Positions 16,352-59,928 of a DNA stretch of 64,000 bases are shown here, one piece after another. This stretch comes from Nitrosopumilus sp. (GTDB lineage: Archaea > Thermoproteota > Nitrososphaeria > Nitrososphaerales > Nitrosopumilaceae). The notes under the pieces were generated by a model. It saw only the letters and a list, made by a program, of their open reading frames with translations, was not told the DNA's origin and searched no databases. Numbering within the stretch: position 1 is the stretch's first letter; each line of letters opens with the position of its first letter. Position numbers and translations under genes: made by a program. The DNA lies in the NCBI GenBank assembly GCA_963662625.1, contig OY759726.1, positions 1,024,001 through 1,088,000 of the forward strand. Direction: 5' to 3'.

Positions 16352-16369
16352 CGGGGGATAGCAAAGCAC

Positions 16370-16795
16370 ATGACCGTAGCCGGCAACTGGGCCCGCAGGC
16401 GCTGGTTGAACTTCCGGCAGGGCCACAGCTACTACCTGATCTTCGCCATGTCATTTGCCAACTTCATCCTGATCGCGTACCGCCTCCTGGTGGAGCGCGT
16501 GGACGCGCTCAACGAGCTGTTCTCGAGCCTGTGGCTGTTCGTGGCAGCCTTCATCGCGCTGTACGTTCCCGCGGCAATACTGATCGGGCACTGGCACCAC
16601 AAGACGCAGGTCAAGATTGAGACCGAGCTGTGGCACAACCAGGATCCCGTCATGGCGCGGTGGTTCCGGCTGCTGATCGACATGCAGGCCGGCAGGGCCA
16701 CGCAGGAGGAGATTGCCGAGACCCGCGACTTCCTGAAATCGATAGAGGACGGAAAAAACTACAAGGAGTTAGCGGGCGACAAGGACAACCCATGA
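16370..16795 (+). CDS. Small membrane protein (2 TM), unknown function
   Basis: Two hydrophobic helices; stop overlaps the next ATG. Confidence 0.75.
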   Translation: MTVAGNWARRRWLNFRQGHSYYLIFAMSFANFILIAYRLLVERVDALNELFSSLWLFVAAFIALYVPAAILIGHWHHKTQVKIETELWHNQDPVMARWFRLLIDMQAGRATQEEIAETRDFLKSIEDGKNYKELAGDKDNP

Positions 16796-17853: not shown

Positions 17854-17895
17854 CCTCCTGACAACCGTTTTATGTAAACGCGGCCCCATCTGCCC

Positions 17896-18981: not shown

Positions 18982-18986
18982 GCAGG

Positions 18987-19733
18987 CTATGCCGCCAGCC
19001 TCTTGAAGTTGCCGTGCAGTATGGCGTGCTTTGACCTCTCGTCCAGCAGTGCGTCCTCCACGTTGGAGCGCATGGCGTTGAAGCTGCACCATGGAAAGTC
19101 GCTGCCAAACAGGACCCTCTCCCTGCCAAGCACCTCCACGGCGTGCTCGATCCTGTACGGCGTGCTGGTGCCAGAGGTGTCAAAATACACGTTCCCGAGC
19201 CCCTCCGCGGCGGCCACCGCGCGCCTGACGATCGCCGTATCGTTGCCGCCCATGTGGGCCAGGACTACCCTTATCCCGGGAAACCTCCTGGCCACCTCCA
19301 GCCCGTGAAGAAACGACGTGTTTGACTCCCGGGAGCCGTCCATGTACCTACCGCAGTGGACAAGCAACACCGCCCGCTTCTCGTCCAGCATGTCCATGAC
19401 CGGCGCGTACCCCGCGTCGGAGACCGGCCGGCCCTCGTACGAGCCGTGGAACTTGGCCCCTATCAGCCCGTCGCCGATCCCACTCTCCAAGTCCTTCAGG
19501 TCGTTCCCGATCCGGCCCCTTCGGACCCAGTAGAACCCGTGGATCCTCCGGTTCTCCCTTGCAAGCGCCATGATCTTCCGGTTGTACAGGCCCGTGTCCT
19601 TTTCAAACGGGATCAGCCCGACCTCGTCGATCCCGTTCTTTTCGATGAAATCGCCCAGCTTGGACGGGTCTAGGAAATTGTTTATGCTGTCTGACCACCC
19701 CAGGTGGACGTGGACGTCATTTATGCCGCCCAT
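18987..19733 (-). CDS. Amidohydrolase_2 family metallohydrolase
   Basis: DVHVH, KFH, VHCG, AHMGG, FDTS, LFGSDFP. Confidence 0.9.
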   Translation of the reverse strand: MGGINDVHVHLGWSDSINNFLDPSKLGDFIEKNGIDEVGLIPFEKDTGLYNRKIMALARENRRIHGFYWVRRGRIGNDLKDLESGIGDGLIGAKFHGSYEGRPVSDAGYAPVMDMLDEKRAVLLVHCGRYMDGSRESNTSFLHGLEVARRFPGIRVVLAHMGGNDTAIVRRAVAAAEGLGNVYFDTSGTSTPYRIEHAVEVLGRERVLFGSDFPWCSFNAMRSNVEDALLDERSKHAILHGNFKRLAA

Positions 19734-20280
19734 CTACAACCCGCCCGACCTGGTCCCTCCCCCCGATCACGAAGGAGTTAGGCGGCACGCTCCTCGTCAG
19801 GACACACCTTGCGGCAATCAGCGAGTGGTGCCCCACGACTATCCCGGGCATCACGGTCACCCCAGTCCCGATCCTGACATTGTCCTCGATCTTCGGGGGC
19901 GAGATCCTGGCCTCGGCCTTGCCCCGCGACGTCCCGTGCCCCGCGCCGGTAATCTCCGGCGTGTTTGCCGTCACGACATAGTGCGCCATGAACACGTTGC
20001 TGCCCACCGACATGCCCCTGGTTATGTGCGCCTGGGCCTCGATCGTGGTGTTGCTCCCTATGGCGGCGTCCCCCTCGCACATTGACAGGGGGCCGAAGAT
20101 CGTGTTGTCGCCAATCCTCGTGTTGGGCCTCAGCACGGCGTTTGCCCCGACGACGCACTCCTTCCCTATTTCACAGCCTTCGTAGATCACCGCCCCCGGC
20201 TCGACCTTGGTTCCCTCGCCCACGACGGCGGAGGCGTGGATGGACGCCCTGCCAGATACCAGCTCCCAGGTTCCAGCCAT
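19717..20280 (-). CDS. Left-handed beta-helix acyltransferase (sugar N/O-acetyltransferase)
   Basis: Hexapeptide repeats; IEDNVRIG..VMPGIVVG. Confidence 0.88.
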   Translation of the reverse strand: MAGTWELVSGRASIHASAVVGEGTKVEPGAVIYEGCEIGKECVVGANAVLRPNTRIGDNTIFGPLSMCEGDAAIGSNTTIEAQAHITRGMSVGSNVFMAHYVVTANTPEITGAGHGTSRGKAEARISPPKIEDNVRIGTGVTVMPGIVVGHHSLIAARCVLTRSVPPNSFVIGGRDQVGRVVDGRHK

Positions 20281-20375: not shown

Positions 20376-22238
20376 ATGGCAAAGTGGGCAGACTACCTGA
20401 TATCCGAGGCCGTCTACGATTCCAACCACCTGATCTTCAGGGCAAAGCGGCATCAGGACACCGGGGACGGCGTCGGCCCGCCGACGGTGGTGGACAGGCT
20501 TTCGATTGCCTCTGACATAAAAAATGGCCGAAAATACGTCACCATCTACGACACGTCCCTTTCGTGGAAGAAGGGCAACCAAATCCGAGCTTTTCGGTTA
20601 AACGGCGAACCGTATGTCAGGATCGACAACAACGAGGTAAGGCTGGATTTTCTTGGAGACATCCCTGAATTGCAGGGCTACGAGTCCGAACTGGAACAGC
20701 TGTCATCAGGATTAAAAGGACAAGAACCGGATCCAGATCCGGAACCGGAACCTGTCCGGAAGCCCGAGCCTTTCCAAAAGCCGGAACCGTCCACCGAGCC
20801 CGCACCAAAGCCGGAACCGTCCACCGAGCCCGCACCAAAGCCGGAACCGTCCACCGAGCCCGCACCAAAGCCGGAACCGTCCACCGAGCCCGCACCAAAG
20901 CCGGAACCGTCCACCGAGCCCGCACCAAAGCCGGAACCGTCCACCGAGCCCGCACCAAAGCCGGAACCGTCCACCGAGCCCGCACCAAAGCCGGAACCGT
21001 CCACCGAGCCCGCACCAAAGCCGGAACCGTCCACCGAGCCCGCACCAAAGCCGGAACCGTCCACCGAGCCCGCACCAAAGCCGGAACCGTCCACCGAGCC
21101 CGCCGCAGAACCGTCGCCATCATCGGAGACCCAAGCCGCCCCCGAGCTCTCGTCCCAGCGCCCGTGGGGCTCGCTGCCCAAGGGCGTAAAGCCGGAACCG
21201 TCCACCGAGCCCGCCGCAGAACCGTCGCCATCATCGGAGACCCAAGCCGCCCCCGAGCTCTCGTCCCAGCGCCCGTGGGGCTCGCTGCCCAAGGGCGTAA
21301 AGCCGGAACCGTCCACCGAGCCCGCCGCAGAACCGTCGCCATCATCGGAGACCCAAGCCGCCCCCGAGCTCTCGTCCCAGCGCCCGTGGGGCTCGCTGCC
21401 CAAGGGCGTAAAGCCGGAACCGTCCACCGAGCCCGCCGCAGAACCGTCGCCATCATCGGAGACCCAAGCCGCCCCCGAGCTCTCGTCCCAGCGCCCGTGG
21501 GGCTCGCTGCCCAAGGGCGTAAAGCCGGAACCGTCCACCGAGCCCGCCGCAGAACCGTCGCCATCATCGGAGACCCAAGCCGCCCCCGAGCTCTCGTCCC
21601 AGCGCCCGTGGGGCTCGCTGCCCAAGGGCGTAAAGCCGGAACCGTCCACCGAGCCCGCCGCAGAACCGGAACCGGAACCGGAACCGGAACCGGAACCGGA
21701 ACCGGAACCGGAACCGGAACCGGAACCGGAACCGGAACCGGAACCGGAACCGGCCTCCGAGAAACTGGCCCAACTTGCAGACTTTAAATCACAAATTGAG
21801 GAATTGGAAGACTCACTGGCAGACATCAAACTGCTGTCCGGCAGGGTTTCTGAGCAAGAGACTAAGCCGAAAAAAGGAAACGCGCAGCCACGGGTACCCG
21901 GCCCAAAGGCGACCTCAAAACCCGGTGGCGCCGACGAGAAGGCGGCGCGGCTGCTCAAGATGCAGGACGAGGCACTAGGTGACCTGCAGGACAGGCTCGG
22001 GGCTCCCGCGCCAGAAGACGCCCGGCCCGCGCCAGAAGACGCCCGGCCCGCGCCAGAAGACGCCCGGCCCGCGCCAGAGATCACGGCGTACTGCGTCAAA
22101 TGCAAAGAAAAACGCCCAGTCGACAACGCCCGACCCATCGTCATGCAAAACGGGCGCCATGCCGTCAGGGGAACCTGCTCGGTCTGCGGCTGCACGGTAT
22201 TCAGGATTGTCAAGAAACACCAGTCTACGAAACAGTAA
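20376..22238 (+). CDS. DUF3892-like N-domain + Pro/Glu-rich repeat linker + C-terminal DUF5679-like zinc ribbon
   Basis: WADYLIS..YVRID N-terminus; [10 protein letters not shown]...GTCSVCG C-terminus; domain names from recall. Confidence 0.75.
20778..21752 (+). repeat. Compound in-frame tandem array: 10 x 30 bp, 5 x 111 bp, 15 x GAACCG
   Basis: Units start at 20778 ([10 protein letters not shown]), 21078 (37 aa with WGSLPK) and 21663 (EP); a further 3 x 21 bp near 22005-22075. Confidence 0.95.
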
Positions 22239-38067: not shown

Positions 38068-38325
38068 CACCCTGCCCGAATGCCTGAGGACGTCCCACGC
38101 AGGGCTTGACGTTATGAAGTACACCAGCAGGAAGCCCTTGGTGCTCAAGAACTTTTGAGCGTTGCTATAGGTTGTTGCCAACGGGGACGGTGCGCGGCCG
38201 TGATCCAAGGACTTTTCGGTTTGGCATGGCTGGGCCGGTGGTTCAACTGTTTGGACCCGGCAATTTCTGGCAGTTGTGCAACAGGCTACAAAGCTGGGTT
38301 TCCTTATATTGTGCCAGTGGCAGGC

Positions 38326-39402
38326 ATGAACATGGTAAAAAGCTGCATAGGGATAGACACTACAAACTATTTCAGGCAAGCCAGTAAGCCGTTTCAGGCA
38401 CCCATTGGGGTGGGGCTTGAGGTTGAAGACTATGACGTGTTTACGAGCAAATACGACTCAGTTGTCGAGGAGTTGAAGAAGACACATGACATCTCCACGA
38501 ATAGGAAATGTATCAAAAGCCATTATGTCTATGAAAAAAACCCGTCTTCTGCAAGGCAGTTCATAGCTGATTTTACAAAAAGACTCATGCCACACGTAAA
38601 AACAGTCTTTGTGTCACATACCATACTCAACTCCCAAAAAACACCCAGAATTCAATACTACAGGGGAAGGATGGCTGTAACCCCCAGCGAATTCGTTTTA
38701 CATCTACAGAGTTATTACCCGCATGTTCTGGCATGGAAGATACTTTCTACCCTTCCTGACAGGAGGAACTCCGTGTTTATGCTGGATCACTTTACTGGAC
38801 ATATCACAAAGGCGTGGGAGCAGATCGAGAATGAAAACATTTTGATCTACCCATCAGGAGAGTACTGCAACCCACTGATCTCATCTGCCGACTTTGTGTC
38901 CAAGTACATAAGCGATTTCATCCACCTTAACAAGACAAGGTTGGAATTCGGATCTATTTCCAAGGCGCTTGGGCAGTTTGGCGTGGAGGAGATCAGTAGG
39001 AACCGCGGTAGCCCCATGCAAGAGCAAAGCACCAAAACAGAACTCTTGCAGTATTTTATCTACGACCTGTCCATGATCACCCCCCATGAGAAAAGGGCCA
39101 TAGATGTCGGCAGGAAGATCAAGCATCCGATATATTTTCTGCTGACTGGAAAGAAATTCAATCGCGAGGCCGAGGCGTTAAAACATACCGTATACTTCGA
39201 CATTGTGGCCAACCGCGCTTGCGGCGATCGGGGTTCCATACGCGCCGTAAATGTGGATGAAATGCCAAACGAGCTAAAAGTCATGCGAGACGGCGACAAG
39301 ATCATTGCGTTTGGCGGCGACTCCCTTGACCTGGCAAATTATCTAGTCAACGACTTTAGCGGCCTGAAGGTCGAGGTGGTTCCCAGCAGGAACTTGAAAT
39401 GA
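38326..39402 (+). CDS. Low-GC hypothetical protein with putative RNase H-like (DUF3800-like) acidic motifs
   Basis: IGIDT near N-terminus, MLDHF, LISSADF; AT-richer codon usage than core genes. Confidence 0.65.
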   Translation: MNMVKSCIGIDTTNYFRQASKPFQAPIGVGLEVEDYDVFTSKYDSVVEELKKTHDISTNRKCIKSHYVYEKNPSSARQFIADFTKRLMPHVKTVFVSHTILNSQKTPRIQYYRGRMAVTPSEFVLHLQSYYPHVLAWKILSTLPDRRNSVFMLDHFTGHITKAWEQIENENILIYPSGEYCNPLISSADFVSKYISDFIHLNKTRLEFGSISKALGQFGVEEISRNRGSPMQEQSTKTELLQYFIYDLSMITPHEKRAIDVGRKIKHPIYFLLTGKKFNREAEALKHTVYFDIVANRACGDRGSIRAVNVDEMPNELKVMRDGDKIIAFGGDSLDLANYLVNDFSGLKVEVVPSRNLK

Positions 39403-39459
39403 ACTGCCTTTAGCGCGGCGGGATTCAAGCGCCCGGGGTGTAGTTTGTTGAACACATGA

Positions 39460-40847
39460 TAACCACCCAGGCGTAGTTGCCCCGATGGACCGGCCCCTGG
39501 TAGCGCGTGGGCCTAGCGCCCTTTCTGTTGAATGGGGCAACCCGGGCTGCCGTGTCACTGGGCTTCGCGCCCTGATGGGCGTGTGCGGCCTCCGATCCGT
39601 CAGACATCCGAAAGGAGGTGATAGGAAAGGATGAGAAAGACAAGCATAGGGACAGGCATGGGGAAGAGAAAGTGCGACGCGTGCGTGGCGGGCGGGAACG
39701 GGAAGGTTCCCGGGAGGGGGCAGTACCCCGACACCCGGGACGGCGCGGCGAAGTTCGCAGGGGCGATGGCGCGCAGGCATGCCTGGGCGGCGGCCCCTGC
39801 AGGGCCGCCCGCGAGACGACTGGCAACATGCGGGACAGGACGTCTGGCGCCTCCGGGGCGACCGGGACCGGCATCAAACTGGCCAACACGCACAGGATGG
39901 CCCTGATAGCCAGGACCGCCAAGAAGACCGACATGGTGGACGCCGAGAAGATAGCGCAGGTGCCGGGAACGGGCATGATACCGGAGCGCTGCGTCCCCCC
40001 GGGCCACACCAGGGGGATACGCGCGATGGCCGGGCATAGGGTGAGGCTGGCCCGGGACAGGACGCGCGTGACAAGCCGCGCCCGCAGCCTCCCGGGCCGC
40101 CACGACATCCAAATGGACGCCTCCACCATGCACTCCGAAAAGGCCCTGGGGCAGCCGGAGTCCGCGGGGCCGGGCTCCGTGTGCGACGGGGCGGTGCTGG
40201 TCCAGTGCGCCCGGCAGGCGGGGCACCTGACGGAGGAGATCTCCGTGACGGAGGGGCTCCCCGGGACGGGGGCCGCCCACAACGGTGACGCGAGGCTGCC
40301 GGCCGGCACGGCCGGCGTCGGCACGCTCGCCGCGGTGCTGATGGCCCCAGGGATGGGGGACGTCCCCGGGTTCAGGGGGCCAAGGCAGATGGCGTCGTGG
40401 GCCGGGCTGTGCCCGGCCGCATGCCAGTCGGGGAACCGGCTGCACGCGGGGAGGATCAAGAAGATCGACTCCAGCAGCCTGGCTAGCCGGGCCACGTGCG
40501 AGGCCGCGGACGTGGCAGTGCGGCACGACGCCAGGATGGAGGCCGTGTACGCGTCCGCGCGCCGGAGGCACGCGGACATGCACGGGCCGGCCATAATCGT
40601 GGTGGCCCACAAGATGGTCACCATAATGTGGCACATGCTGACCACCAAGACACCCTACGAGTCCCGCAACGAGAGGCTGTACCGGCGCAAGCTGGCCAGG
40701 ACGGGTAAGGCGCGCCGGGGTTGACCCCCCCGTTGCCCGCATCCCGGATCGTCTTGCCAGCGCTAGCCATGAATCCCATGCCATGCAACCCAGGCACGGA
40801 TCGGAAAAGCCGTGGGATGCATTGCGGCAACTACGCCTGGGTGGTTA
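39460..40847 (+). mobile_element. IS110/IS1111-family element with frameshifted, degenerate recombinase
   Basis: 22-bp perfect IR TAACCACCCAGGCGTAGTTGCC; KKTD..DA, GVG, WAGLCP...QSG, AHKM motifs; ORF start 39631 is out of frame with the rest. Confidence 0.88.
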
Positions 40848-41073
40848 ACATAGGTGCGCAACCATGCCTGAACCCGTCTTTGTGGGGTTGTTTTTCGTGC
40901 CTGAAAACCGAGTTGCGCAACAAGCTACTTGGGGGGGAAACTATACCTGAAATGTGGGTTGTGCAAGAGCACAACGCACTATATTTGTAGTCTATGAGCA
41001 TGACTCCTAGTCGAAGCCGTGCCCTATACACCATATGTATTATTGGGTATATATACGGTCTGTTACATACTAG

Positions 41074-42075
41074 GTATGAGGTCACCACCCCTACACTATC
41101 TTGGATACCTCGCCTGACAGGGATTTCCCGTGCCTCTCCCACATGATCATGCACGTCATGAAGTGGGACCACCTGTCCCTCCAGGGCTTCCCTCCCTTGA
41201 TCTGGCCGCTTATCTTTCGGGACGCCACCACGTGCCGCAGGCCGCGCCCGGGGGCGCTGTCCGTGGGCCCCGCCCCCCTGTGCCCCGGGAACGTGAACAG
41301 GCGGGGCAGCGGCGCCTGCAGCCTGCCCGCCAGGGGGGCAGGCGCGGTGCCCCCGGCGTCCCCGTGCCCGAACGGCAGCCTGCGCATCCCAGACTCGAAG
41401 GCGCGGCGCAGGCGCGCCGAGTGCCTGCCCGAGGCGGCGGCCGCCGGCGCCCCCTTCCTCTCCGCGGCGCGCCGCAGCTCCCGCAGCCCGTGGGACCGGC
41501 ACGGCCGGTGGCGCCCGCCCGGGCCTGACCTCCCGTACGCGGAGGGCCTGCCGGACGTGACGATCCCGCGGTACCCGCCCGCGTGCCTGCCTGGCACCCG
41601 CGGCCCCCTGCTCCGGCCGTGCACGATCACGGCGTTCCTGCCGGACCGGGTGACCCGCGCCCGCCCGCCCTCTCCCGCCAGGTTGGCGCGCGTCTCGTCG
41701 GCCCCGGCATTCTTGGACCTCCTGGCGCGGCCCACGATGTCCCGGAACTGCCCGCGCATCGCGCCGCGGGTGTGCCCCGTCACGTTTATCGCGGTCGATT
41801 TCGCGATCCTCACCCCCGTGATCTCCCGCACGGCCCCCGCCATCTTCCCGAACGGGACGGCCGCGTGGCGCAGCGCGGCCACCGCGGCCACCGTGTTCTT
41901 GCCGTAGCTCCCGCGCGCAGGGAGGCCGCTTGGCGCCACGTGCTCCCTGCTGCACTTGGGGCACGCGGCGGTCTGGACGGCGTGGCGCGTCTCCGTCACC
42001 ACCACCTCAAAGTCCAGGATGTCCCGCGTGACGGGCCCAGTAGTTGAAAATGTACCCCGCGGGGCGCCGGCCAGC
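41074..42075 (-). mobile_element. Degenerate IS66-family element, second copy, 5'-truncated
   Basis: Same TIR GTATGAGGTCAC at 41074; open ORF with CPKC, ADET and decayed CWAH and TNN..ER.LR..V..RK motifs. Confidence 0.82.
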
Positions 42076-42119
42076 ATGTTTTGACACGATCCGTGAACGT
42101 TTTGGACAGAAAAGCCAAT

Positions 42120-42500
42120 TGATCAGGCGCCCCTGTCATCCCTTATGCAACACCAAAAAGAACCACAGGGGCACCGGCTTGAGGTGGCGGGCAAGGCGTT
42201 TAAAACGTTGCCACGGCTGCTTGGGAAGGCGGGCATCAGGTTCTCGGGCCGGCACAACGCCGCGTGCGGCATGGCCGACTTCGTGCGCGTGCTGGTGTCC
42301 ATGTGCAGGGACCGCTCGTGCGCGTCGGGCGCCGCCGGGGCGCTCGCCGTGCGCCACGGGCCCCGCCGCGTACCGTCGTCGACGTGGTTCCTGTCCAGGA
42401 TAGGGGGACGTGCCGGGACCCCGGCGCCATGGAGGGCGGGTGCAGGGACGCCCTGCGCTCCACGGTGCGCGGGGCCCGTCGCGCCGGGATCATCGGGGGG
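42120..42500 (+). pseudogene. Possible N-terminal fragment of another transposase (ISH3/IS4-like, uncertain)
   Basis: Frameshifted fragment MQHQKE...VPSSTWFLSRI wedged between IS66 and IS110 relics. Confidence 0.35.
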
Positions 42501-43540
42501 TCAACCCCGGCGCGCCTTACCCGTCCTGGCCAGCTTGCGCCGGTACAGCCTCTCGTTGCGGGACTCGTAGGGTGTCTTGGTGGTCAGCATGTGCCACATT
42601 ATGGTGACCATCTTGTGGGCCACCACGATTATGGCCGGCCCGTGCATGTCCGCGTGCCTCCGGCGCGCGGACGCGTACACGGCCTCCATCCTGGCGTCGT
42701 GCCGCACTGCCACGTCCGCGGCCTCGCACGTGGCCCGGCTAGCCAGGCTGCTGGAGTCGATCTTCTTGATCCTCCCCGCGTGCAGCCGGTTCCCCGACTG
42801 GCATGCGGCCGGGCACAGCCCGGCCCACGACGCCATCTGCCTTGGCCCCCTGAACCCGGGGACGTCCCCCATCCCTGGGGCCATCAGCACCGCGGCGAGC
42901 GTGCCGACGCCGGCCGTGCCGGCCGGCAGCCTCGCGTCACCGTTGTGGGCGGCCCCCGTCCCGGGGAGCCCCTCCGTCACGGAGATCTCCTCCGTCAGGT
43001 GCCCCGCCTGCCGGGCGCACTGGCCCAGGACCAACCCGTCGCACACGGAGCCCGGCCCCGCGGATTCCAGCTGCCCCAGGGCCTTTTCGGAGTGCATGGT
43101 GGAGGCGTCCATTTGGATGTCGTGGCGGCCCGGGAGGCTGCGGGCGCGGCTTGTCACGCGCGTCCTGTCCCGGGCCAGCCTCACCCTATGCCCGGCCATC
43201 GCGCGTATCCCCCTGGTGTGGCCCGGGGGGACGCAGCGCTCCGGTATCATGCCCGTTCCCGGCACCTGCGCTATCTTCTCGGCGTCCACCATGTCGGTCT
43301 TCTTGGCGGTCCTGGCTATCAGGGCCATCCTGTGCGTGTTGGCCAGTTTGATGCCGGTCCCGGTCGCCCCGGAGGCGCCAGACGTCCTGTCCCGCATGTT
43401 GCCAGTCGTCTCGCGGGCGGCCCTGCAGGGGCCGCCGCCCAGGCATGCCTGCGCGCCATCGCCCCTGCGAACTTCGCCGCGCCGTCCCGGGTGTCGGGGT
43501 ACTGCCCCCTCCCGGGAACCTTCCCGTTCCCGTCCACCTG
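42496..43540 (-). mobile_element. IS110-family recombinase relic, second copy, inverted, lacking intact ends
   Basis: Near-identical reverse complement of about 39690-40729. Confidence 0.9.
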
Positions 43541-50756: not shown

Positions 50757-51914
50757 TCAGACCTGGTCCCGGTACATCCGGATCACCTTCTCGTACATCG
50801 CGTCCTGGCCGTACGTAGACTCTAGCACCCCGCGGCCGTTTCTTCCCATCTCGGCTGCCTTCTGGCAGTCGTCGACGCAGTCGATCATCCTGCCAGCCCA
50901 CGCGACGCCGTCCCGGGAGCCGATGACGTACCCCGTCCTGCCGTCCTCCACGATGTCCGACGCCGGCCTCACGTCGGACACCAGCACGGGCTTGTTCTGC
51001 AGGAACGCCTCGAGTATGACCAGGCCGAACCCCTCGCAAAGGCTCGGAAACACCATCGCGGCAGACTCCGCGATGATCCTCTCCTTCTCCCGGGCCCCCA
51101 CGTGCCCCGCGAACCTCACGTGCCGTCCGAGCCCCATGTCCCTGACCATCTCCTCCAGCGCCCCCCTGTGCGGGCCGTCGCCGACTATGACCAGCCTGAT
51201 CCCGGGCCTCTTCTGCCTCGCGATGCCGACCGCCTCGATCACCACCTCCAGGTTCTTGTAAAAGACCAGCCTTCCCACGAACACGAACTGCGACGGGTCC
51301 GTCTTGGAGCCGCGCACGGCCTCCCCGTCCACCGCGTTGTGGATCACGTAGACGGGTTTTTTTGCGCCGAACCTCACAAGGTCGTCCCTGCTCGCCTCGC
51401 TCACGGTGTGGATGCAGTCGAGGCGGAGCCTGGTCGCCAGCCTCTCGAAGAACGGCGCGAGCATGACGCTGATCCTCGACACGCCGTTCTGCGAGCCCCA
51501 CCTCCTCCAGTAGTCCCTCCCGCACAGCGAGAACACGTCGTGGATGGTCGTGACGTGCGGCCTGCCGGTGACCGACGAGAGGAGCGATCCGGCAAGCGCC
51601 GGCGCGAAGTTGTTGGAGTGGATGATCTCGATCCCGTGCTCCCTCACGAGCCGCCTGCCCTCCCTGGCGGCGTTTGCCACGTACCTCAGGTTGTCCAGGA
51701 ACCCGGCCGGCATGCCCCCACTGTACTCCAGGGTGGGCCTCACGAAGACCACGTTGGCCCCGGCGGCGTCCCCGTACTGCTCCCCCCTTATCCGGTTCGT
51801 GACGACCCACACGGAGTTGCCGTTCTCCGCCAGCTTCCTTGCGAGCATGTGGAACACGTACTCCCCGCCGCCGCGCGTGGTAGAGAAGAACTGGGACAGC
51901 AGGAGCACCTTCAT
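50757..51914 (-). CDS. GT4 glycosyltransferase
   Basis: GGGE, VGRL..YKN, VGDGP, EGFGLVILEA. Confidence 0.93.
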   Translation of the reverse strand: MKVLLLSQFFSTTRGGGEYVFHMLARKLAENGNSVWVVTNRIRGEQYGDAAGANVVFVRPTLEYSGGMPAGFLDNLRYVANAAREGRRLVREHGIEIIHSNNFAPALAGSLLSSVTGRPHVTTIHDVFSLCGRDYWRRWGSQNGVSRISVMLAPFFERLATRLRLDCIHTVSEASRDDLVRFGAKKPVYVIHNAVDGEAVRGSKTDPSQFVFVGRLVFYKNLEVVIEAVGIARQKRPGIRLVIVGDGPHRGALEEMVRDMGLGRHVRFAGHVGAREKERIIAESAAMVFPSLCEGFGLVILEAFLQNKPVLVSDVRPASDIVEDGRTGYVIGSRDGVAWAGRMIDCVDDCQKAAEMGRNGRGVLESTYGQDAMYEKVIRMYRDQV

Positions 51915-51920
51915 GGCGTG

Positions 51921-52670
51921 CTAGTCACCCGGCTTCTTCCCGTCCAGGATCCCAAGGTAGTCGTTTATCACCCTGCCCGGCTCCCCCTCGCTTGCGATCC
52001 TCCCGTCCTCCAGCATTATGGCCCTGTCGCACAGGCTGTCCACCGAACTGAGGTCGTGCGAGACGAAGACTATGGTCTTCTTGGCCTCCTTGAACCTCAT
52101 GAACGCCTCGTAGCTCTTCTTCTGGAACGGCGGGTCCCCCACGGCCAGGACCTCGTCGACCAGTATGATGTCGGGGTTTATCCGGACCGCCGTCGCGAAC
52201 GCCAGGCGCATGGCCATCCCCGTCGAGAACTTTTTCAGCTTGACGTTCCTGAACCTTTCTAGCTCCGCAAAGCCGATTATCTCGTCCACCATCCCGGTGA
52301 TCTGGCCGTGGGAAAACCCCAGGATCTTCCCGTAAAACACCACGTTGTCCCTGGCCGACAGCTCCGGGTTGAACCCAGTCCCCAGCGACAGCAGCGGGAC
52401 CATGCTGCCACTGATCCTGATCTCCCCGGAGTCGGGCCTGTAGATCCCGGCAATGAGGCGGAGGAGGGTGGTCTTCCCTATGCCGTTCCGGCCCACGATC
52501 CCGAACATCTCGCCCTTCCTCACCTCGAAGGAGACGTTCCTGAGTATGCCTATCTCGGAGTCGTCCCCGGCCCTGCTGAACACCGAGTCCCTGCTCCTGG
52601 TCTTGAACCGCTTGCTTACAGAGTCCACCTCTATGGCGTTTCCCGGGATCCTGCTACAGCTCCTCAACAA
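51921..52670 (-). CDS. wzt: Polysaccharide ABC exporter ATPase (no C-terminal CBM)
   Basis: GRNGIGKTT, GFNPELS, FSTGM..RLAF, DEVLAVGD..FQKK. Confidence 0.93.
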   Translation of the reverse strand: MLRSCSRIPGNAIEVDSVSKRFKTRSRDSVFSRAGDDSEIGILRNVSFEVRKGEMFGIVGRNGIGKTTLLRLIAGIYRPDSGEIRISGSMVPLLSLGTGFNPELSARDNVVFYGKILGFSHGQITGMVDEIIGFAELERFRNVKLKKFSTGMAMRLAFATAVRINPDIILVDEVLAVGDPPFQKKSYEAFMRFKEAKKTIVFVSHDLSSVDSLCDRAIMLEDGRIASEGEPGRVINDYLGILDGKKPGD

Positions 52671-53427
52671 TCCTGAACTCGTAACGTTTGAATATAATGT
52701 ATCCTACTACGAGGATCCCGACCGAGAATGCCGCGGTGTACGCCATGGCAAAGGCAGACGGCAGCTGCCCGTACAGCGCGGCGCCGTGGGCCATGTCCAG
52801 GAACTGCGCCACCGGGTTGATCAGGAGTATCCTGCCCATCTCCTCCGGGAATATGCTGATGTCGTAGATCACCGGCGTCAGGAAGAACCCGGCGTACGTG
52901 GCGATCGTCCACACGTTCTGCACGTCCCTGAACCTGACGTACACCACCGAAAGGATGAACGAGATGCCCAGCGTCATGCAGAACAGCAGCGCCACGAGCA
53001 CCGGCAGCAAGAGTATCGTGGCCTCCGGGACGAACCGGAACCCCGCCACGAACCCGAAGAACACCACGAACTCGACCCCCAGCATGATGAACGCGGTGAC
53101 GCAGGAACTGATCGGGAGTATGCCCCTCGGGAAGTACGTCTGGTTGACGATCCCCGCCCTGGCCAGGATGCTCCCTAGCCCCGTGCTGGTGGAGCGCGCA
53201 AAGTAGTTCCACATTATGATTCCCAGCAGGAGGTAGAGCGGGTAGTTCTCGATGTCCGACTTGAACACGTGGGAGAAGATCAGGTACAGGATCCCGAGCA
53301 TCAGCATGGGCTCCAGGAACGACCACAGCGCCCCCAGCAGGGATCCCTTGTAGCGGATGATCAGGTCGTTCACGGCAAACGTCCTTATCAGCGAACGGTT
53401 CTCCCATATCTCGCTTGGCGGCATCAC
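52654..53427 (-). CDS. wzm: Polysaccharide ABC exporter permease
   Basis: RYKGS.LG.LW...P, FRD, F.TPVIY, NP. Confidence 0.93.
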   Translation of the reverse strand: MMPPSEIWENRSLIRTFAVNDLIIRYKGSLLGALWSFLEPMLMLGILYLIFSHVFKSDIENYPLYLLLGIIMWNYFARSTSTGLGSILARAGIVNQTYFPRGILPISSCVTAFIMLGVEFVVFFGFVAGFRFVPEATILLLPVLVALLFCMTLGISFILSVVYVRFRDVQNVWTIATYAGFFLTPVIYDISIFPEEMGRILLINPVAQFLDMAHGAALYGQLPSAFAMAYTAAFSVGILVVGYIIFKRYEFRIVEEL

Positions 53428-53448
53428 CGGAATGTCGCACCTCTTGTT

Positions 53449-54582
53449 TTATATCTCGTTTGCCCGCCCCCCGCAGAACCTGCGGATCAGGCCGGCCATC
53501 TCGGCGGCCTTGCCCTCCCAGTCGTTCTGCCTCGCCACGTCCTGCCCGGCCGCCGCGTCGTGGCCCTGCCCGGCGGCCGACTCGACGTGCCCCAGGAACT
53601 CCTCGTGACTCTTTGCCACCCTGCATATGCCGCCGAACCTGCCCAGCTCGGGCAGCTCCGTGGTGACCGTGGGCTTGCCCGAGGCCATGTACTCGTAGAA
53701 CTTGTTCGGGTTCACGCTGCGGGTCAGCCTGTTGACTAGGAACGGGATTATGCACACGTCAAACGCCTTGACGTACCCGGGGAGCTCCCGGTAGTCCTTC
53801 CTGCCAAGGACGTGCAGGTTCCCGGACCTCATCTGCCTCAGGCGCCTCCTCTGCCTCGGGGGGGCCCACCCGATCAACACTACCGACGCGTCGGGGAACC
53901 TCCGCAGGATCTTCTCCAGCAGGTCAAAGTCAAACCACTCCCCCATGGCCCCCACGTACCCTATGACGGGCCGCGCGATGCCCCGCACCTCCGCCGCGAC
54001 CTCCGTCCCCTCCTGCGAGGCCTTCCCAAAATGCGCCGCGTCCACGCCGTTTCCCACTAGGAAGATCTCCTTCCTGCCCCTGAACCTCTCCAGGATGCTC
54101 TCCGACGGGGTGAACATCACGTCGGATCTTGCCTCCAGGACGCCTATGTACTCCTCGAGCCAGGGGCCGGTGGCGTCGAACTCCCTGACGTCGTCCGTGA
54201 TGTCGTAGCAGACCAGGGACTCGCCCAGGCTGCCTATCACGCACGAGTACCTCGGCTTGTAAAACAGCAGGACCGGCTCGCGGATTCCCCTGTCCCTCAG
54301 GATTTTTTTCATCCCCCTGGTTATGATCCGGTCGTTGCCCCTCCGGCCAAAGCCGATCCTGTCTGCCAGCGGGATCGTGGGGACCGACACCACCTCCACG
54401 TTCTCCCGCACCATGCGGCTCCTCCTGAACGGCGTCCTGGCGATGATGCTCCACGCGATCGACAGCCAGAACGACGGCTCGACGTACAGCACCTTCCAGT
54501 CGCTCGGGAACCGGGAGACCATCTGCTGCTGCCTCTGCCAGAGGAAGTTCCAGGTGATGTCCGAAAAGCAAACTATCTGCAA
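53449..54582 (-). CDS. GT-B glycosyltransferase (TuaH-like)
   Basis: W..LWQRQQ, YDITDD, NGVD..HF, NPNKFYEYMASGKP; TTG start assumed. Confidence 0.88.
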   Translation of the reverse strand: MQIVCFSDITWNFLWQRQQQMVSRFPSDWKVLYVEPSFWLSIAWSIIARTPFRRSRMVRENVEVVSVPTIPLADRIGFGRRGNDRIITRGMKKILRDRGIREPVLLFYKPRYSCVIGSLGESLVCYDITDDVREFDATGPWLEEYIGVLEARSDVMFTPSESILERFRGRKEIFLVGNGVDAAHFGKASQEGTEVAAEVRGIARPVIGYVGAMGEWFDFDLLEKILRRFPDASVVLIGWAPPRQRRRLRQMRSGNLHVLGRKDYRELPGYVKAFDVCIIPFLVNRLTRSVNPNKFYEYMASGKPTVTTELPELGRFGGICRVAKSHEEFLGHVESAAGQGHDAAAGQDVARQNDWEGKAAEMAGLIRRFCGGRANEI

Positions 54583-54721
54583 TACATGACTCAGGCCCGG
54601 TTTGGCGATTAAAGTTTTTGTAGGGGTATGGCCCGCCGGCTCCGGCGGGGCAGTTCCCGACAGGCTGCGCCGCGTCCCGCGCCTGAAAATACAGAAATAG
54701 ATCTTCCCAGCAAAACTTGGA

Positions 54722-55528
54722 ATGGCAAAAAACCTCGAAAAGGTGTTCAAGGCAAAAACTCGGCTCCTTGACGAGCTGCAGCACGTCCTGGAAGCCAAGA
54801 TCGAGGCAATCACGGAGCTGGAGCGGTCGCTCGAGGAGAAGACCGGCGCCGTCACGGAGCTGGAGCGGTCGCTCGAGGAGAAGACCGGCGCCGTCACGGA
54901 GCTGGAGCGGTCGCTCGAGGAGAAGACCGGCGCCGTCACGGAGCTGGAGCGGTCGCTCGAGGAGAAGACCGGCGCCGTCACGGAGCTGGAGCGGTCGCTC
55001 GAGGAGAAGACCGGCGCCGTCACGGAGCTGGAGCGGTCGCTCGAGGAGAAGACCGGCGCCGTCACGGAGCTGGAGCGGTCGCTCGAGGAGAAGACCGGCG
55101 CCGTCACGGAGCTGGAGCGGTCGCTCGAGGAGAAGACCGGCGCCGTCACGGAGCTGGAGCGGTCGCTCGAGGAGAAGACCGGCGCCGTCACGGAGCTGGA
55201 GCGGTCGCTCGAGGAGAAGACCGGCGCCGTCACGGAGCTGGAGCGGTCGCTCGAGGAGAAGACCGGCGCCGTCACGGAGCTGGAGCGGTCGCTCGAGGAG
55301 AAGACCGGCGCCGTCACGGAGCTGGAGCGGTCGCTCGAGGAGAAGACCGGCGCCATGGCGGGGCTGCAAGAGTCGCTCGACGGGAAGGCGGCCGACGCCA
55401 AGCTGCTGGAAGGGAAACTGAAGGCAAGCCAAAACGAGGCGGCGCAGCAGAAGGCGGAGATCGACTCGCTGAAGAGCTCGCTGTCCTACAGAATCGGAAA
55501 GAGGTTCGGCTCCAAGCCCGCGGGCTAG
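54722..55528 (+). CDS. Stand-alone coiled-coil protein with perfect 14-aa repeats and SLSYRIG tail
   Basis: 13 x VTELERSLEEKTGA; no enzyme domain. Confidence 0.85.
   Translation: MAKNLEKVFKAKTRLLDELQHVLEAKIEAITELERSLEEKTGAVTELERSLEEKTGAVTELERSLEEKTGAVTELERSLEEKTGAVTELERSLEEKTGAVTELERSLEEKTGAVTELERSLEEKTGAVTELERSLEEKTGAVTELERSLEEKTGAVTELERSLEEKTGAVTELERSLEEKTGAVTELERSLEEKTGAVTELERSLEEKTGAMAGLQESLDGKAADAKLLEGKLKASQNEAAQQKAEIDSLKSSLSYRIGKRFGSKPAG
54809..55354 (+). repeat. 13 x 42-bp tandem repeat
   Basis: GTCACGGAGCTGGAGCGGTCGCTCGAGGAGAAGACCGGCGCC; 546 bp. Confidence 0.96.
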
Positions 55529-55622
55529 CGCGGGCAGCGGCCCGCGGGGATCCGGCCCCGCGGCTTCGGGTGAGGTGCCAGGAAATAAACAGATAATTGG
55601 AGCGGGGCGCGATCGTTAACCG

Positions 55623-56426
55623 TTGCAAGACAAGGTGTCAAAGGCGGGGGGCGGTTCCCAGGCCGGCGGACCTGGCGCAGGATCCGTCCCGCGGGAGGAA
55701 TCGCGCGATCCCATCGAGGACGAACTCTCCGTGTACATGCGCTCGGATCTCTCGCCCGCGGAGAGGGCGAGGCTGATCGGGAGGCTGTGGCAGAGGCTGG
55801 CCTCGACCGAGTTTGCCCACGGCGAGTCCCTTTCCATGCAGCCCGCGCTGGCTGACATGTGCGTCGATTCCAAATCCAACATGCTGGACGAGTGGGAGCT
55901 CGCATGCCTCTGCTCCTGCATCGTAAACTTTGACTGGAAGCCCGACGACTACCTGATAGAGATCGGGACGAACATAGGCCAGACCGCCGTATTCATGGCC
56001 AAGGTGCTCCGGTCGATGGGCCTTGGCACGAAGATCATCAGCGTGGACCCGTTCTCCTTCGCGGCCGACAAGATGCTCAACCCGAAAGGAAACTACTCCT
56101 ACTATGTCACGCTCACCAGGCAGCAAAACGTCAACGACATGTGCATCCCGGTGACGGCGTTCTCCCAGGACATCCCGCACATCTTCAAGGAAAACGTGGG
56201 GGTGTTGCTCGTGGACGGCTCCCACCAGTACGAGGACGTGAAAAAAGACCTCGATTACTACTCCGGGCTGGTCAGGCCGAACGGATACGTCTTCGTGGAC
56301 GACTATAACGCCTCAAACTACCCCGGCGTGTACGGGGCGTTCGACGAGTGGCTTGCCGGCTATGACAACTTTGAGCTGTCCTACAAGGACAGCTACTTTG
56401 TAATAGCGAAAAAGATCCGTGACTAG
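55623..56426 (+). CDS. Class I SAM methyltransferase (Methyltransf_24-like)
   Basis: IEIGT..G, SVDPF, VDGSHQYE.V..D, GYVFVDDY..YPGV. Confidence 0.87.
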   Translation: MQDKVSKAGGGSQAGGPGAGSVPREESRDPIEDELSVYMRSDLSPAERARLIGRLWQRLASTEFAHGESLSMQPALADMCVDSKSNMLDEWELACLCSCIVNFDWKPDDYLIEIGTNIGQTAVFMAKVLRSMGLGTKIISVDPFSFAADKMLNPKGNYSYYVTLTRQQNVNDMCIPVTAFSQDIPHIFKENVGVLLVDGSHQYEDVKKDLDYYSGLVRPNGYVFVDDYNASNYPGVYGAFDEWLAGYDNFELSYKDSYFVIAKKIRD

Positions 56427-56604
56427 CGCCGCTCCCGACCCGCGCTGGCATTGCGGCCCGGCCGGTGGGGCCCCCCCGCGCCCCCGTCCCAGGACGGCCC
56501 GGCGTCCCCGCCGCGGGCGGCCCCGGGGCCCGCCGCGCACGTGGCTGCAGCAAAGCCGCGGGTTGATAGCAAAACAAGTATAGGGACTTTTTTCTGGTAC
56601 TTAC

Positions 56605-59505
56605 ATGTTGAGCGAAGATCCTACGACGGAGGCAGACTCGCAAAAGCCCTCGCTCTGGGACGGGATAGCGGCGCAGTACCGCACCGCGCCGGACCGGGGG
56701 GAGGCCGAGATCGCGGGGGAGCTCGAGTCCATCCTGGAGGGCCTCGGGGTGCGCGCCGGCTCCGCCCTGCTGGAGGCGGGATCCGGCAGCGGGCACATAT
56801 CCTCGCTCCTTGCGTCAAAGGGGTACAGGACCACGCTCCTCGACTTTAGCAAGGCCGCGCTGAAAAAATCAAAGCGGCTCTACAAGAAGAACGGCCTGGA
56901 CGGGATCTTCGTCCACTCCGACCTGTTTGACATCTCCGCCGAGTCCGTGGGCACCCATGACGTCGTGTGGAACTCCGGGGTCTTGGAGCACTTTGACGGC
57001 TGGCAGATCATCGAGGCGATGCAGAAGATGGCGTCCGTCGCCAAGAAATTCGTGATAATACTGGTCCCGAACTCTAACAGCTCCGAGTACATGGAGTTTA
57101 GGAAGAAGGCGCTGGAGGACGGCGCGTGGCAGTGGGGGCTGGAGATACTGCGCGAGGACATGAGGGACATGGCCGCGATCTCCGGCCTGGAGGTGGTGGA
57201 GGAGCGGTTCGTGGGGACCACCCACCTGAAATACTTTAAAGACTACGCAAAGCCGGTCGAGGACGCCGACGATCCAGATGGCATTCCCGACGACGAGAAG
57301 TACCTCAGGGTAATAGTGGCAAGGCCAGCCCCCCCGGCGCCGCCCGACCGGGAACTGGAGGCCGCCGCGCTGTCCAGGATCCTCCGGAACGACTCGGAGG
57401 CCCTGCGCCGGACGTACTACAACGACATCACGATCCTTATGGATCGGCTCAAGTCGCTCGGGGCCAAGGCAGGCGAGGACAAGGCCTTCATCGCCCAGCT
57501 GAAAACCGATTTTGCCTCCTCGCGGCAGACGATAGCGACCCTGGAGGGGAACCTCTCCACGTCGCTCCAGACGGCGGCCGACCTGGAGGGGGATCTTGCC
57601 TCCTCGCGGCAGACGATAGCGACCCTGGAGGGGAACCTCTCCGGGTCGCTCCAGACCATAGCCAACCTCGAAGGCGACCTCTCCACGTCGCTCCAGACGG
57701 CGGCCGACCTGGAGGGGGATCTTGCCTCCTCGCGGCAGACGATAGCGACCCTGGAGGGGAACCTCTCCGGGTCGCTCCAGACCATAGCCAACCTCGAAGG
57801 CGACCTCTCCACGTCGCTCCAGACGGCAGCCGACCTGGAGGGGGGCCTTGCCGCCTCGCGGCAGACCATAGCCGACCTGGAGGGGGGCCTTGCCGCCTCG
57901 CGGCAGACCATAGCCGACCTGGAGGGGGGCCTTGCCGCCTCGCGGCAGACCATAGCCGACCTGGAGGGGGGCCTTGCCGCCTCGCGGCAGACCATAGCCG
58001 ACCTGGAGGGGGGCCTTGCCGCCTCGCGGCAGACCATAGCCGACCTGGAGGGTGACCTCCTGGCCCAGAAAAAGATCAACTCCGACCTTGCCGACGAGAA
58101 CCTCGCCCTGGGCCGGGCCTTGGAATTCGAACGGCAGAAGATCGACACGCTGCTGAACACAAAGACGTGGAAGCTCACGAGGCTGTACGAGAAGAAGTTC
58201 CAAGGAAACGTCCTGGGGAGGATGATAGAAAAGACTGTCGACCTGGCCCTGAAGGGCCAGAAGGACAGCGGCGCTGCGCCGCAGGCAGCCGCGGAGGCCC
58301 CGGACGCCGCGCCTGCCGCAGCGGAGGCCCCGGACGCCGCGCCACAAGAAGCGCAGAAGAAGAATGCCCACCTAGAGGCCCTCCGGGAGATAATACGGGA
58401 GAACGGGGGCGTCAAGGGGATCGTCGTCTACCCGCCCACGGTCGACTGGAACATCCCGCTCCTCCAGAGGCCGCAACACATGGCATCCCACCTGGCCCGG
58501 AACAACTGGCTGTATTTTTACTGCACCACGAACGCCTATGACAAGGTCAGCGGCTTTGAGAAGATATCTGACCGGCTCTACCTGACCGATCGATTCGACG
58601 AACTGGTGGGGGAACTGGACTCCTTCTTCGCCTTCGTGCACAGCGCGCACCCCACCCTGACGATCCCCGATCTCGAGGGCCTGGGGAAGAAGGCGATGCT
58701 GGTGTACGACTACCTCGACGAGATCCACCCCGACGTCAGCGGGCTCAACCCCCGGGACGTCCTGGACCGGCACACCCACATGATGAAGAACAGCACGGCG
58801 GTGGTCGCCACCGCCGGGAAGCTGTTCTCCGACGTGGCAGAACTGCGCCGGGACAACGTCTACCTGCTCCCGAACGCGGTGGACTATGACCACTTCCACA
58901 GGACCCGGGATCCGGGGGCGATCCCCAAGGAGATCAGGCCGATCAGGGAGTCCGGAGGGCCGATCCTGGGATACTTTGGCGCCATAGCAAAGTGGTTTGA
59001 CTACGAGCTGATCAAGGAGGTGGCCCGGGCCCGGCCGGACTGGAACATCGTCCTGATCGGCTGGGACTATGACAAGACGGTCGGCAAGAGCGGGATCGAC
59101 GAGTTCGAGAACATACACTACCTTGGCATAAAGGAGTACGGCATCCTGCCAGAATACGCCGTGTGGTTTGACGTGTGCATCCTGCCGTTCCTCGTAAACG
59201 ACATCACCAACTCCACGTCCCCGATAAAGCTCTTTGAGTACATGGCGCTAGGCAAACCCATAGTCGCGACCCCGATAAGGGAGGTGGGCAACTACAAGAG
59301 CCCGCTCGTGGCCGGCGGCCCGGGGGAGTTCGTCGAAAAGGTCGAGCAGGCGCTCAAGCTCGGGGGAGACCGGGATTACCTCGAGCTGGTGGACGGGGAG
59401 GCCAGGGGCAACACCTGGAAGAAGAGGTTTGACGACCTGGACGGGATACTGGAATCGCTGCTGGAGCGGGGAGGCCAGGGGCAACGCTTGGAAGAAGGGC
59501 CTTGA
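56605..59505 (+). CDS. Methyltransferase - coiled coil - glycosyltransferase fusion
   Basis: LLEAGSGSG/NSGVLEHF; 14-aa repeats; NTKTWKLT; QRPQH, NAVD..HF, SPIKLFEYMALGKP. Confidence 0.9.
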   Translation: MLSEDPTTEADSQKPSLWDGIAAQYRTAPDRGEAEIAGELESILEGLGVRAGSALLEAGSGSGHISSLLASKGYRTTLLDFSKAALKKSKRLYKKNGLDGIFVHSDLFDISAESVGTHDVVWNSGVLEHFDGWQIIEAMQKMASVAKKFVIILVPNSNSSEYMEFRKKALEDGAWQWGLEILREDMRDMAAISGLEVVEERFVGTTHLKYFKDYAKPVEDADDPDGIPDDEKYLRVIVARPAPPAPPDRELEAAALSRILRNDSEALRRTYYNDITILMDRLKSLGAKAGEDKAFIAQLKTDFASSRQTIATLEGNLSTSLQTAADLEGDLASSRQTIATLEGNLSGSLQTIANLEGDLSTSLQTAADLEGDLASSRQTIATLEGNLSGSLQTIANLEGDLSTSLQTAADLEGGLAASRQTIADLEGGLAASRQTIADLEGGLAASRQTIADLEGGLAASRQTIADLEGGLAASRQTIADLEGDLLAQKKINSDLADENLALGRALEFERQKIDTLLNTKTWKLTRLYEKKFQGNVLGRMIEKTVDLALKGQKDSGAAPQAAAEAPDAAPAAAEAPDAAPQEAQKKNAHLEALREIIRENGGVKGIVVYPPTVDWNIPLLQRPQHMASHLARNNWLYFYCTTNAYDKVSGFEKISDRLYLTDRFDELVGELDSFFAFVHSAHPTLTIPDLEGLGKKAMLVYDYLDEIHPDVSGLNPRDVLDRHTHMMKNSTAVVATAGKLFSDVAELRRDNVYLLPNAVDYDHFHRTRDPGAIPKEIRPIRESGGPILGYFGAIAKWFDYELIKEVARARPDWNIVLIGWDYDKTVGKSGIDEFENIHYLGIKEYGILPEYAVWFDVCILPFLVNDITNSTSPIKLFEYMALGKPIVATPIREVGNYKSPLVAGGPGEFVEKVEQALKLGGDRDYLELVDGEARGNTWKKRFDDLDGILESLLERGGQGQRLEEGP
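57508..58053 (+). repeat. 13 x 42-bp tandem array with higher-order structure
   Basis: 8 variant units (126-bp block duplicated) plus 5 GLAASRQTIADLEG units; 546 bp. Confidence 0.93.
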
Positions 59506-59543
59506 CGACCTGGACGGGATGCTGGAATCGCTGCTGGAGCGGG
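59398..59543 (+). repeat. 73-bp imperfect tandem duplication of the gene 3' end
   Basis: GAGGCCAGGGGCAAC...CTGGAGCGGG starts at 59398 and 59471. Confidence 0.9.
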
Positions 59544-59544
59544 G

Positions 59545-59928
59545 CTAGCTGCACTCCGTGCTCCAAGTGGCCTTGTGATCCTTTCCGTCGTCGAGGAACT
59601 CGCTGCTCTTGGCGCACATCGTGGTGTTCTTTATCTCGGTGTTCTGGATCGCGTCGACCTTGACGTCCATGCGCCTGAACTTCTTGCCGTCCTCCTCCGC
59701 GGTGTAGGGGTCGCTTGTCACCACGTTGAACTCGTAGGTGTAGGTGGTGGTGTCGCCCTTCTTGGGGTTGTTGGCGTACGATCTAGCGGTGACCCCGAAC
59801 TCCTTGCTCTGACCGCCGTACTTTATGTCGCACCTCTCGGCGTCCACGGTATAGTACACCCTGATCCCGATGTTCTGGTTCAGGGCCTCGATGAAGAACA
59901 CCGTGTCCCAGCCCTTGATCTCAGACAA
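59545..59928 (-). CDS. Hypothetical beta-rich protein
   Basis: 127-aa ORF with strong host codon bias; TTAATAAAA upstream. Confidence 0.6.
   Translation of the reverse strand: MSEIKGWDTVFFIEALNQNIGIRVYYTVDAERCDIKYGGQSKEFGVTARSYANNPKKGDTTTYTYEFNVVTSDPYTAEEDGKKFRRMDVKVDAIQNTEIKNTTMCAKSSEFLDDGKDHKATWSTECS

Follow-up and report, generated by a model that had tools for sequence, protein, structure and literature searches.

The locus described here raises the question of whether two neighbouring genes can carry tandem repeats that are unrelated in sequence, equal in size, and tied to each other through the lengths of the coiled coils they encode. It lies in what we call the window, the whole 64,000-nucleotide stretch of a Nitrosopumilus sp. 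genome that was analysed (assembly GCA_963662625.1, contig OY759726.1, forward-strand positions 1,024,001 to 1,088,000), and combines wzm/wzt genes with two coiled-coil genes, coding for proteins A and B, each of which contains an array of 13 units of 42 bp. The first-pass annotation of this DNA had taken the two coils for a matched pair of rulers of glycan length. We favour, with a probability of about 0.5, a ruler system in which the stalks of A and B track each other only loosely, the 13/13 correspondence being a product of loose tracking and chance and not of a hard one-to-one constraint. We read the correspondence in this way since both stalks consist of slippage-prone 14-residue repeats in a genome rich in variable number tandem repeats (VNTRs). 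The features on which the argument turns are the following:

54722..55528, plus strand: protein A, a 255-residue coiled-coil stalk with a truncated anchor; P0121, P0122 and P0127-P0131 are fused forms, and the 5' region and start are conserved with genome G001
54809..55354, plus strand: array A, 13 x 42 bp, two heptads per unit, Lys at every second d position, perfect from 54810
55469..55525, plus strand: anchor motif of A, first helix, net charge +4; relatives of the P0128/P0129 type have a second amphipathic helix, which A has lost
55582..55598, plus strand: AT-rich box, lying about 25-40 nt ahead of the methyltransferase TTG and resembling boxes before other genes of the genome
55623..56426, plus strand: Methyltransf_24 sugar O-methyltransferase with a MycF/TylF-like fold (PF13578, 6e-16)
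56605..59505, plus strand: protein B, 966 residues, with a class I S-adenosylmethionine-dependent methyltransferase (about 15-241), the stalk (D274-W522), an anchor (about 520-550), a linker and a TuaH-like GT-B glycosyltransferase (about 600-956)
57508..58053, plus strand: array B, 13 x 42 bp; the units are of four types, 126 bp are duplicated, and the last five units are nearly identical

Tandem Repeats Finder sets the copy number of the 42-bp unit at 13.0 in both arrays; matches amount to 100% at 54810-55354 and to 80% at 57512-58058, where an inner period of 126 bp is also recognised. Translation by unit gave 13 x 14 residues in frame for 54809-55354 and for 57508-58053, in agreement with the earlier statement that each array comprises 546 bp and 182 residues. 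Array A is uniform, and array B is layered, with the unit order a b a c b a c b d d d d d. The units of the two arrays are unrelated, as had been claimed: their best cyclic identity is 21/42, a value equalled by 27% of 2000 shuffles. In sequencing run X1, possibly the source sample (the stretch is present in three runs of a single study, and no RNA run is listed as containing it), the collapsed repeat contigs have depths of 438, 82 and 177 next to flanks of 35-41.5, corresponding to 10.6-12.5, 2.0-2.4 and 4.3-5.1 copies where 12.0, 2.1 and 4.64 are expected from the assembly. As far as can be seen from contigs that are blind to within-population variation, the arrays are not an assembly artefact, the concern that the first-pass annotation had itself raised. 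The level at which such matches arise by chance was set by 32 other near-perfect in-frame arrays of the same genome, among which 46/496 pairs (9%) match within 21 bp and 11/496 (2%) within 3 bp.

Protein B carries a terminator-type enzyme, its methyltransferase, at the distal end of an extended coil. The structure model (mean predicted local distance difference test score 67.6) shows a class I methyltransferase, long helices up to residue 517, two short helices, a linker and the GT-B domain; neither the model nor the Pfam scan contains a kinase domain. The anchor consists of a basic helix and a second helix with a computed hydrophobic moment of 0.70, as in a membrane-associated amphipathic helix. 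Across orthologues the stalk ranges from 59 to 248 residues between conserved flanks, the upper value being that of the window. The length of about 27 nm proposed earlier, at 0.15 nm per residue, holds for the array only, and the whole stalks of 255 (A, M1-Y256) and 248 residues would reach about 37 nm (0.148 nm per residue). At its 3' end the gene for B also contains a 73-bp tandem duplication (window 59385-59544, 2.2 copies, 90%), which lengthens the C-terminus by about 12 residues relative to most orthologues.

Comparable proteins are known from bacteria, as described in those parts of the cited papers on which we draw here and below. ORF6 of Klebsiella pneumoniae O7 and WbbB of O12/Raoultella likewise combine an N-terminal terminator-type enzyme, a central coil and a C-terminal glycosyltransferase next to wzm/wzt, and in O7 the second glycosyltransferase comes from a stand-alone protein (PMC11231755). 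In contrast to these, the present locus has an archaeal host, TuaH-like GT-B modules instead of GT2, no kinase or carbohydrate-binding module (CBM) in B and no CBM in Wzt, a 42-bp VNTR encoding the stalk, and a second coil protein that lacks a distal enzyme. The WbdD and WbdA system of Escherichia coli O8/O9a shares the methyltransferase, the long coil and the membrane-associated amphipathic helix (PMC3482155), whereas B has no kinase domain, which O9a WbdD possesses, has its glycosyltransferase fused, and is accompanied by no cap-reading Wzt domain. In Geobacillus stearothermophilus, WsaE/WsaF act with Wzm/Wzt and the oligosaccharyltransferase WsaB, and the likeness extends to a methyltransferase-glycosyltransferase fusion with a partner glycosyltransferase and an ABC-exported cell-surface glycan (PMC2943079); the glycosyltransferases there are rhamnosyltransferases, those here TuaH-like. 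E. coli O101/O162 has a methyltransferase with a C-terminal coil proposed as a ruler, whose natural disruption alters chain length; it is a single coil protein, and the text consulted describes no VNTR (PMC13168486). Judged from its domains, the locus would work like the WbbB and O7 ORF6 systems, but without a Wzt CBM and with a protein that is not a WbdD homologue. In this sense the earlier proposal of an archaeal Wzm/Wzt glycan locus with a WbdD/WbbB-like methyltransferase-coil-anchor-glycosyltransferase protein is supported by the domains, the model, the NCBIfam matches and the presence of amoA in the host.

The history of protein A is of a different kind. A search with its C-terminal 71 residues gave six matches, two of them true relatives, and a search with one of these relatives retrieved eight proteins, of which seven are single chains with a coil, an anchor, a low-complexity linker and the same methyltransferase (P0121 among them has a frameshift-like tail at its end). 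The remaining protein is the methyltransferase of the window itself. The coil-anchor-methyltransferase fusion is thus found in 7/7 cluster representatives, while in the window A is separated from the methyltransferase by a stop codon, a shift of frame and a second stop in frame; contigs of runs X1 and X2 spanning 55325-57541 cross the split with 0 differences. On this comparison, A is the split-off N-terminal half of a coil-anchor-linker-methyltransferase gene and the open reading frame (ORF) at 55623..56426 its C-terminal half, and the description of A as a coil-only protein has to be abandoned. The AT-rich box suggests that the split-off methyltransferase has its own promoter; a sigma-70 promoter scan is uninformative in an archaeal host. 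In the model of the fused P0128, residues 2-112 form a single helix, and the enzyme part is similar to sugar O-methyltransferases of the MycF type (the top Foldseek matches are MycF); a search of the ESM Atlas gave no match at 0.9 or above. With the methyltransferase of the window as query, no fused form of greater length was found among 980 candidates of at least 469 residues, fusions of 373-468 residues being covered only by a near-length search. In G001 about nine 12-bp QDVS repeats stand in frame ahead of the methyltransferase (L021:1-115) and form a second VNTR, located in the linker.

The anchors of A and B, whose similar end motifs (SSLSY... and NTKTW...) had been noticed before, are homologous: profile-profile alignment gives a probability of 93.7, places the Tyr of SSLSY on the Trp of NTKTW and continues gapless through the anchor. 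By computation, A retains only the first, basic anchor helix and no second helix. In the other species represented by L034 and L059 the same gene slot holds a methyltransferase-coil-anchor protein followed by an FkbM methyltransferase, from which it appears probable that A arose by losing a distal enzyme. The first idea, drawn from the L034 synteny, that A merely lost an N-terminal methyltransferase, was given up since the closer relatives are coil-anchor-methyltransferase fusions; it is kept as deeper history, which the gapless coil-anchor alignment supports. A has no terminator-type enzyme distal on its coil, the methyltransferase being C-terminal or split off. As a fission product of this sort, it cannot measure in the WbdD sense, and since the terminator is distal in all cases treated in the consulted text of PMC11231755, it is not a ruler of that type; the notion of two rulers does not hold.

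Whether the two stalks nevertheless keep equal lengths can be asked of relatives. We defined the span of A as running from Met1 to the anchor Tyr and that of B as starting at the last invariant Asp and ending at the anchor Trp, the anchors of B being fixed before any pairing. Of 16 A relatives with a coil, six could be assigned a B, partners being inferred by matching contig records. The A/B spans are 73/73 (three contigs of one species), 101/101 (one contig), 101/84 (two contigs) and 255/248 in the window, where the stalks are one heptad apart. All spans except 84 are 3 mod 7. With the edges set by the coil caller instead, A exceeds B by 10-31 residues in all three short pairs, and the exactness of the match therefore hinges on the fixed anchors. 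Where the match is exact, in two pairs, the buried Lys and Arg of A face Leu (once Val) of B, and most of the buried polar residues of B face Leu or Phe of A. When the anchors are aligned in the window, Lys of A lies opposite Ser of B and the polar d layers are in phase; staggering them requires a shift of one heptad. A complex prediction for the 101/101 pair (P0003 236-398 with P0128 1-138) scored 0.26 against a mark of 0.32, in a run without folded controls.

Looser behaviour is seen in further genomes. L034 and L059 are 99.5% identical in DNA, but their B stalks measure 59 and 137 residues, the partner being 387 residues long in both. Further partner/B pairs of this sister species are 105/91, 105/91 and 105/105, and a partner one unit longer (119) also occurs. 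The resulting within-species series (B 59/91/105/137, partner 105/119) proceeds mostly in 14-residue steps, with short-read collapse as a caveat. The proposed register-preserving slippage in steps of about 2 nm is in keeping with this series, except that the B stalk of L059 (L059:5527-5833) mixes 14-residue with 18-residue (7+11) units, showing that the steps are not always pure heptads. In genome G417, B has a stalk of 207 residues and lies about 355 kb from wzm/wzt, the partner there is without a coil, and the A coil used as query found no match. In G001 the contig of A ends where the array of the window begins, and B has a stalk of 80 residues and no array, which hints that the array is probably present in A only; a search for the missing middle of this A found only its N-terminus and a spurious match in a riboflavin-kinase-like gene. 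Long stalks that differ within a locus also occur in other genomes with long contigs, as in L042 with 150, 187 and 251 residues. Across all fetched loci, few have several coils, and these show no general match (L042 150/187/251, L065 110/60, L034 105/65, L059 105/143); an anchor hidden Markov model built for a general test of coil matching was discarded as overfitted. The trees resolve neither the crown clade of B nor the root of A, so that the order of the length changes cannot be read from them. The stalk lengths of A and B track loosely across lineages, and strict coupling is not supported. The suggestion that the matched coils pair or are co-selected fits 73/73, 101/101 and 255/248 but not 101/84, the variation at a fixed partner or the coil loss in G417, and co-variation is seen among lineages as loose tracking of length, but not within the sister species, where B varies while the partner stays at 105.

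The host assembly is one contig of 1.86 Mb (63% GC, completeness 99.5%) with archaeal amoA and aglB, and its close homologues are from Nitrosopumilus or Thaumarchaeota, which confirms an ammonia-oxidising archaeon. The coil genes are surrounded by the following genes:

50757..51914, minus strand: GT4 glycosyltransferase (PF00534 6e-35, PF13439 3e-24), with orthologues after wzt in G001 and G417; likely the priming or adapter step
51921..52670, minus strand: Wzt/TagH-type ABC ATPase, 249 residues (PF00005; NF010065/NF050108 best matches, below cut-off)
52654..53427, minus strand: Wzm ABC-2 permease (PF01061 9e-11; NF050109 3e-20, below cut-off)
53449..54582, minus strand: stand-alone TuaH-like GT-B glycosyltransferase (NF047676 4e-19, below cut-off)
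59545..59928, minus strand: 127-residue protein without a Pfam or NCBIfam match, directly 3' of B also in G001, L039 and L057-L059
59956..61086, minus strand: WecB, a non-hydrolysing UDP-GlcNAc 2-epimerase supplying UDP-ManNAc (TIGR00236, 350 bits, cut-off 210)

The first-pass annotation did not describe the Methyltransf_24 ORF or the stand-alone TuaH-like gene. The latter codes for a paralogue of the glycosyltransferase domain of B (33% identity over 262 residues) and is likely a second polymerase module; with 68.7 and 76.1 bits against a curated cut-off of 550 for NF047676, both are termed TuaH-like only. The best NCBIfam matches of the two transporter genes, encoded alongside glycosyltransferases, are to Wzm, Wzt and TagH models, below the curated cut-offs. 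Wzt consists of ABC_tran only, without the C-terminal CBM, and PF14524 has 0 matches in the whole 99.5% complete genome; such a CBM is present in the related methanogen locus L042. The system is rare: among 401 genomes of the family, the C-terminal part of B has matches in 10 (E<=1e-20), of which 3 contain a close orthologue, and the corresponding count for the order is 2/401; a further profile, A2, matches in 7/401 genomes.

In the reading we prefer, a surface polysaccharide would grow on a lipid carrier at the inner face of the membrane before its export via Wzm/Wzt. Two TuaH-like GT-B modules, the C-terminus of B and the stand-alone enzyme, might extend the chain near the membrane, with a sugar that is probably derived from ManNAc and supplied through WecB. 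The N-terminal methyltransferase of B, held about 37 nm out on its stalk, would cap those chains that reach it, in the manner of WbdD, WbbB and O7 ORF6, and slippage of 42-bp units would retune this reach by about 2 nm per unit, from about 11 nm in the species with the shortest pair to about 37 nm here. A would be a coil-anchor paralogue; in relatives this module would bind a sugar O-methyltransferase near the membrane to the complex, and here it is split from its enzyme, the separate O-methyltransferase perhaps decorating residues near the membrane. In the bacterial systems a distal methyltransferase on a coil above membrane-proximal glycosyltransferases caps ABC-exported chains and can set their length (PMC11231755, PMC3482155, PMC2943079), and a coil with a distal terminator is a marker of this length-control strategy (PMC11231755).

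Several results weigh against this reading. The exact matches in two non-repetitive lineages (73/73, 101/101), together with 255/248, exceed expectation, only 2/24 permutations match the A and B lengths as well, and random draws of B from the spans seen yield p=0.04 when only the three short lineages are counted and 0.0016 once the window is added, although these p values overstate the case: the lineages are kin, the window owes its selection to the match, and long repeats are lost from short-read assemblies. On the side of length control, capping may not gate export where Wzt has no CBM, methylation by WsaE is length-independent in vitro (PMC2943079), and no WbdD chain is among the 22 PDB matches of the methyltransferase of B (profile A4). 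The observed matches would follow if the enzyme-less coil of A paired in parallel along the whole stalk of B as a hetero-dimer or hetero-trimer, stiffening it and so having to match its length; the split-off A would then have been retained and expanded with B, two unrelated DNA repeats being driven to matching size. We hold this to be possible but clearly less probable. It would account for the homologous anchors and the preserved register (84 excepted), for the facing of buried polar and apolar residues in the exact pairs, and for a span of 248, which at 14-residue steps is one of the two values nearest 255. It would also explain why A, which carries nothing distal, has a conserved N-terminal 30 residues, with its start and upstream box kept in G001; and the promoter-like box that the methyltransferase has after fission implies that the coil is no longer its tether. 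Yet the 101/84 pair occurs on two contigs, the d layers of the window are in phase and not staggered, the array of G001 is probably in A only, A-like methyltransferase-coil partners vary independently or lose the coil, and WbdD556 homo-trimerises alone (PMC3482155). The pairs moreover come from just three related lineages besides the window, and a chance match of 9% among VNTR pairs of this genome argues against tight coupling.

It is rather unlikely that there is no ruler at all, with a CBM-less Wzt coupling export to synthesis and so setting length, as in K. pneumoniae O1/O2a, the methyltransferases decorating the chain and the coils serving as spacers or oligomerisation domains. The missing CBM leaves room for such control, as CBM-less O1/O2a needs no capping for length (PMC11231755), and the fourfold spread of stalk length among orthologues fits it, as does P0014, which lacks most of the N-terminal methyltransferase and still has a 157-residue stalk (possibly a gene-call effect). 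Against it, a coil with a distal terminator marks length control in O3/O5/O12/O4/O7 (PMC11231755), and the methyltransferase motifs of B are invariant in 14/14 aligned orthologues. Very improbable, finally, is that A is a decaying remnant of the fission with an array that slips neutrally, or that the arrays are artefacts. A has indeed lost its second anchor helix and its enzyme, its array is 100% identical, hence recently homogenised, and 32 other such arrays exist in the genome; but A is open and in heptad register over 268 codons, the GC content at third codon positions is 0.88 in its C-terminal part, like that of its neighbours, and read depth fits the assembly.

Related gene neighbourhoods and further repeats were also observed. 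A second glycosylation cluster lies about 40 kb away in the window (12278-20280), with aglB (STT3), a second wecB (below cut-off) and a NeuD-like acetyltransferase gene; in L039, aglB is 4 kb from B. The Methanosarcinales loci L038, L040, L041, L036 and L042 possess the same module of a TuaH-like glycosyltransferase and a methyltransferase-coil-glycosyltransferase protein, directly beside aglB and wecB in the first three, and L042 has three VNTR-built stalks and a Wzt with a CBM. With AglB, an oligosaccharyltransferase is encoded in the window and beside the methanogen loci, a likeness to the WsaB system; in these methanogens an ABC-exported long glycan for AglB is possible. At L152:6186-12461, in a member of the family, a 2091-residue multi-glycosyltransferase protein with two VNTR coils (25-residue units of 7+7+11, and 14-residue units) adjoins CBM-less wzm/wzt. 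Elsewhere in the host genome, a heptad VNTR coil with 21/63-bp units in an unrelated ORF (G000:C1:50014-50337) indicates a tendency to expand coils, and a 620-residue ORF (20376-22238) contains stacked perfect repeats of 30, 111, 6 and 21 bp at window 20724-22078. The region 38155-43400 of the window has several degenerate ORFs that are presumably transposase-like, going by sequence type, and two of these are near-identical copies in opposite orientation (39618-40724 and 42501-43397). A long CRISPR-like array of more than 100 repeats lies at G000:C1:1684050-1693521.

The established coiled-coil rulers come from a small number of O-antigen systems of bacteria, in each of which a single coil protein has its terminator at the distal end (PMC11231755). 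A literature search, which largely left uncovered subscription papers, including a terminator survey that possibly covers archaea, found no ruler system of an ammonia-oxidising archaeon, no VNTR-encoded ruler and no paired stalk. In the two ammonia-oxidising species studied, only a hexasaccharide N-glycan or none has been described (PMC12153357). The present locus points to long, methylated surface glycans in ammonia-oxidising archaea, and its natural series of stalks of 59-248 residues could serve to test whether the ruler rule holds in a non-bacterial host whose Wzt has no CBM. The locus stands apart by its companion coil, which has no enzyme and follows the other stalk in length only in part. 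If it is true that A braces B, this would be a new design principle, a length constraint shared by two genes and imposed on two independent repeats.

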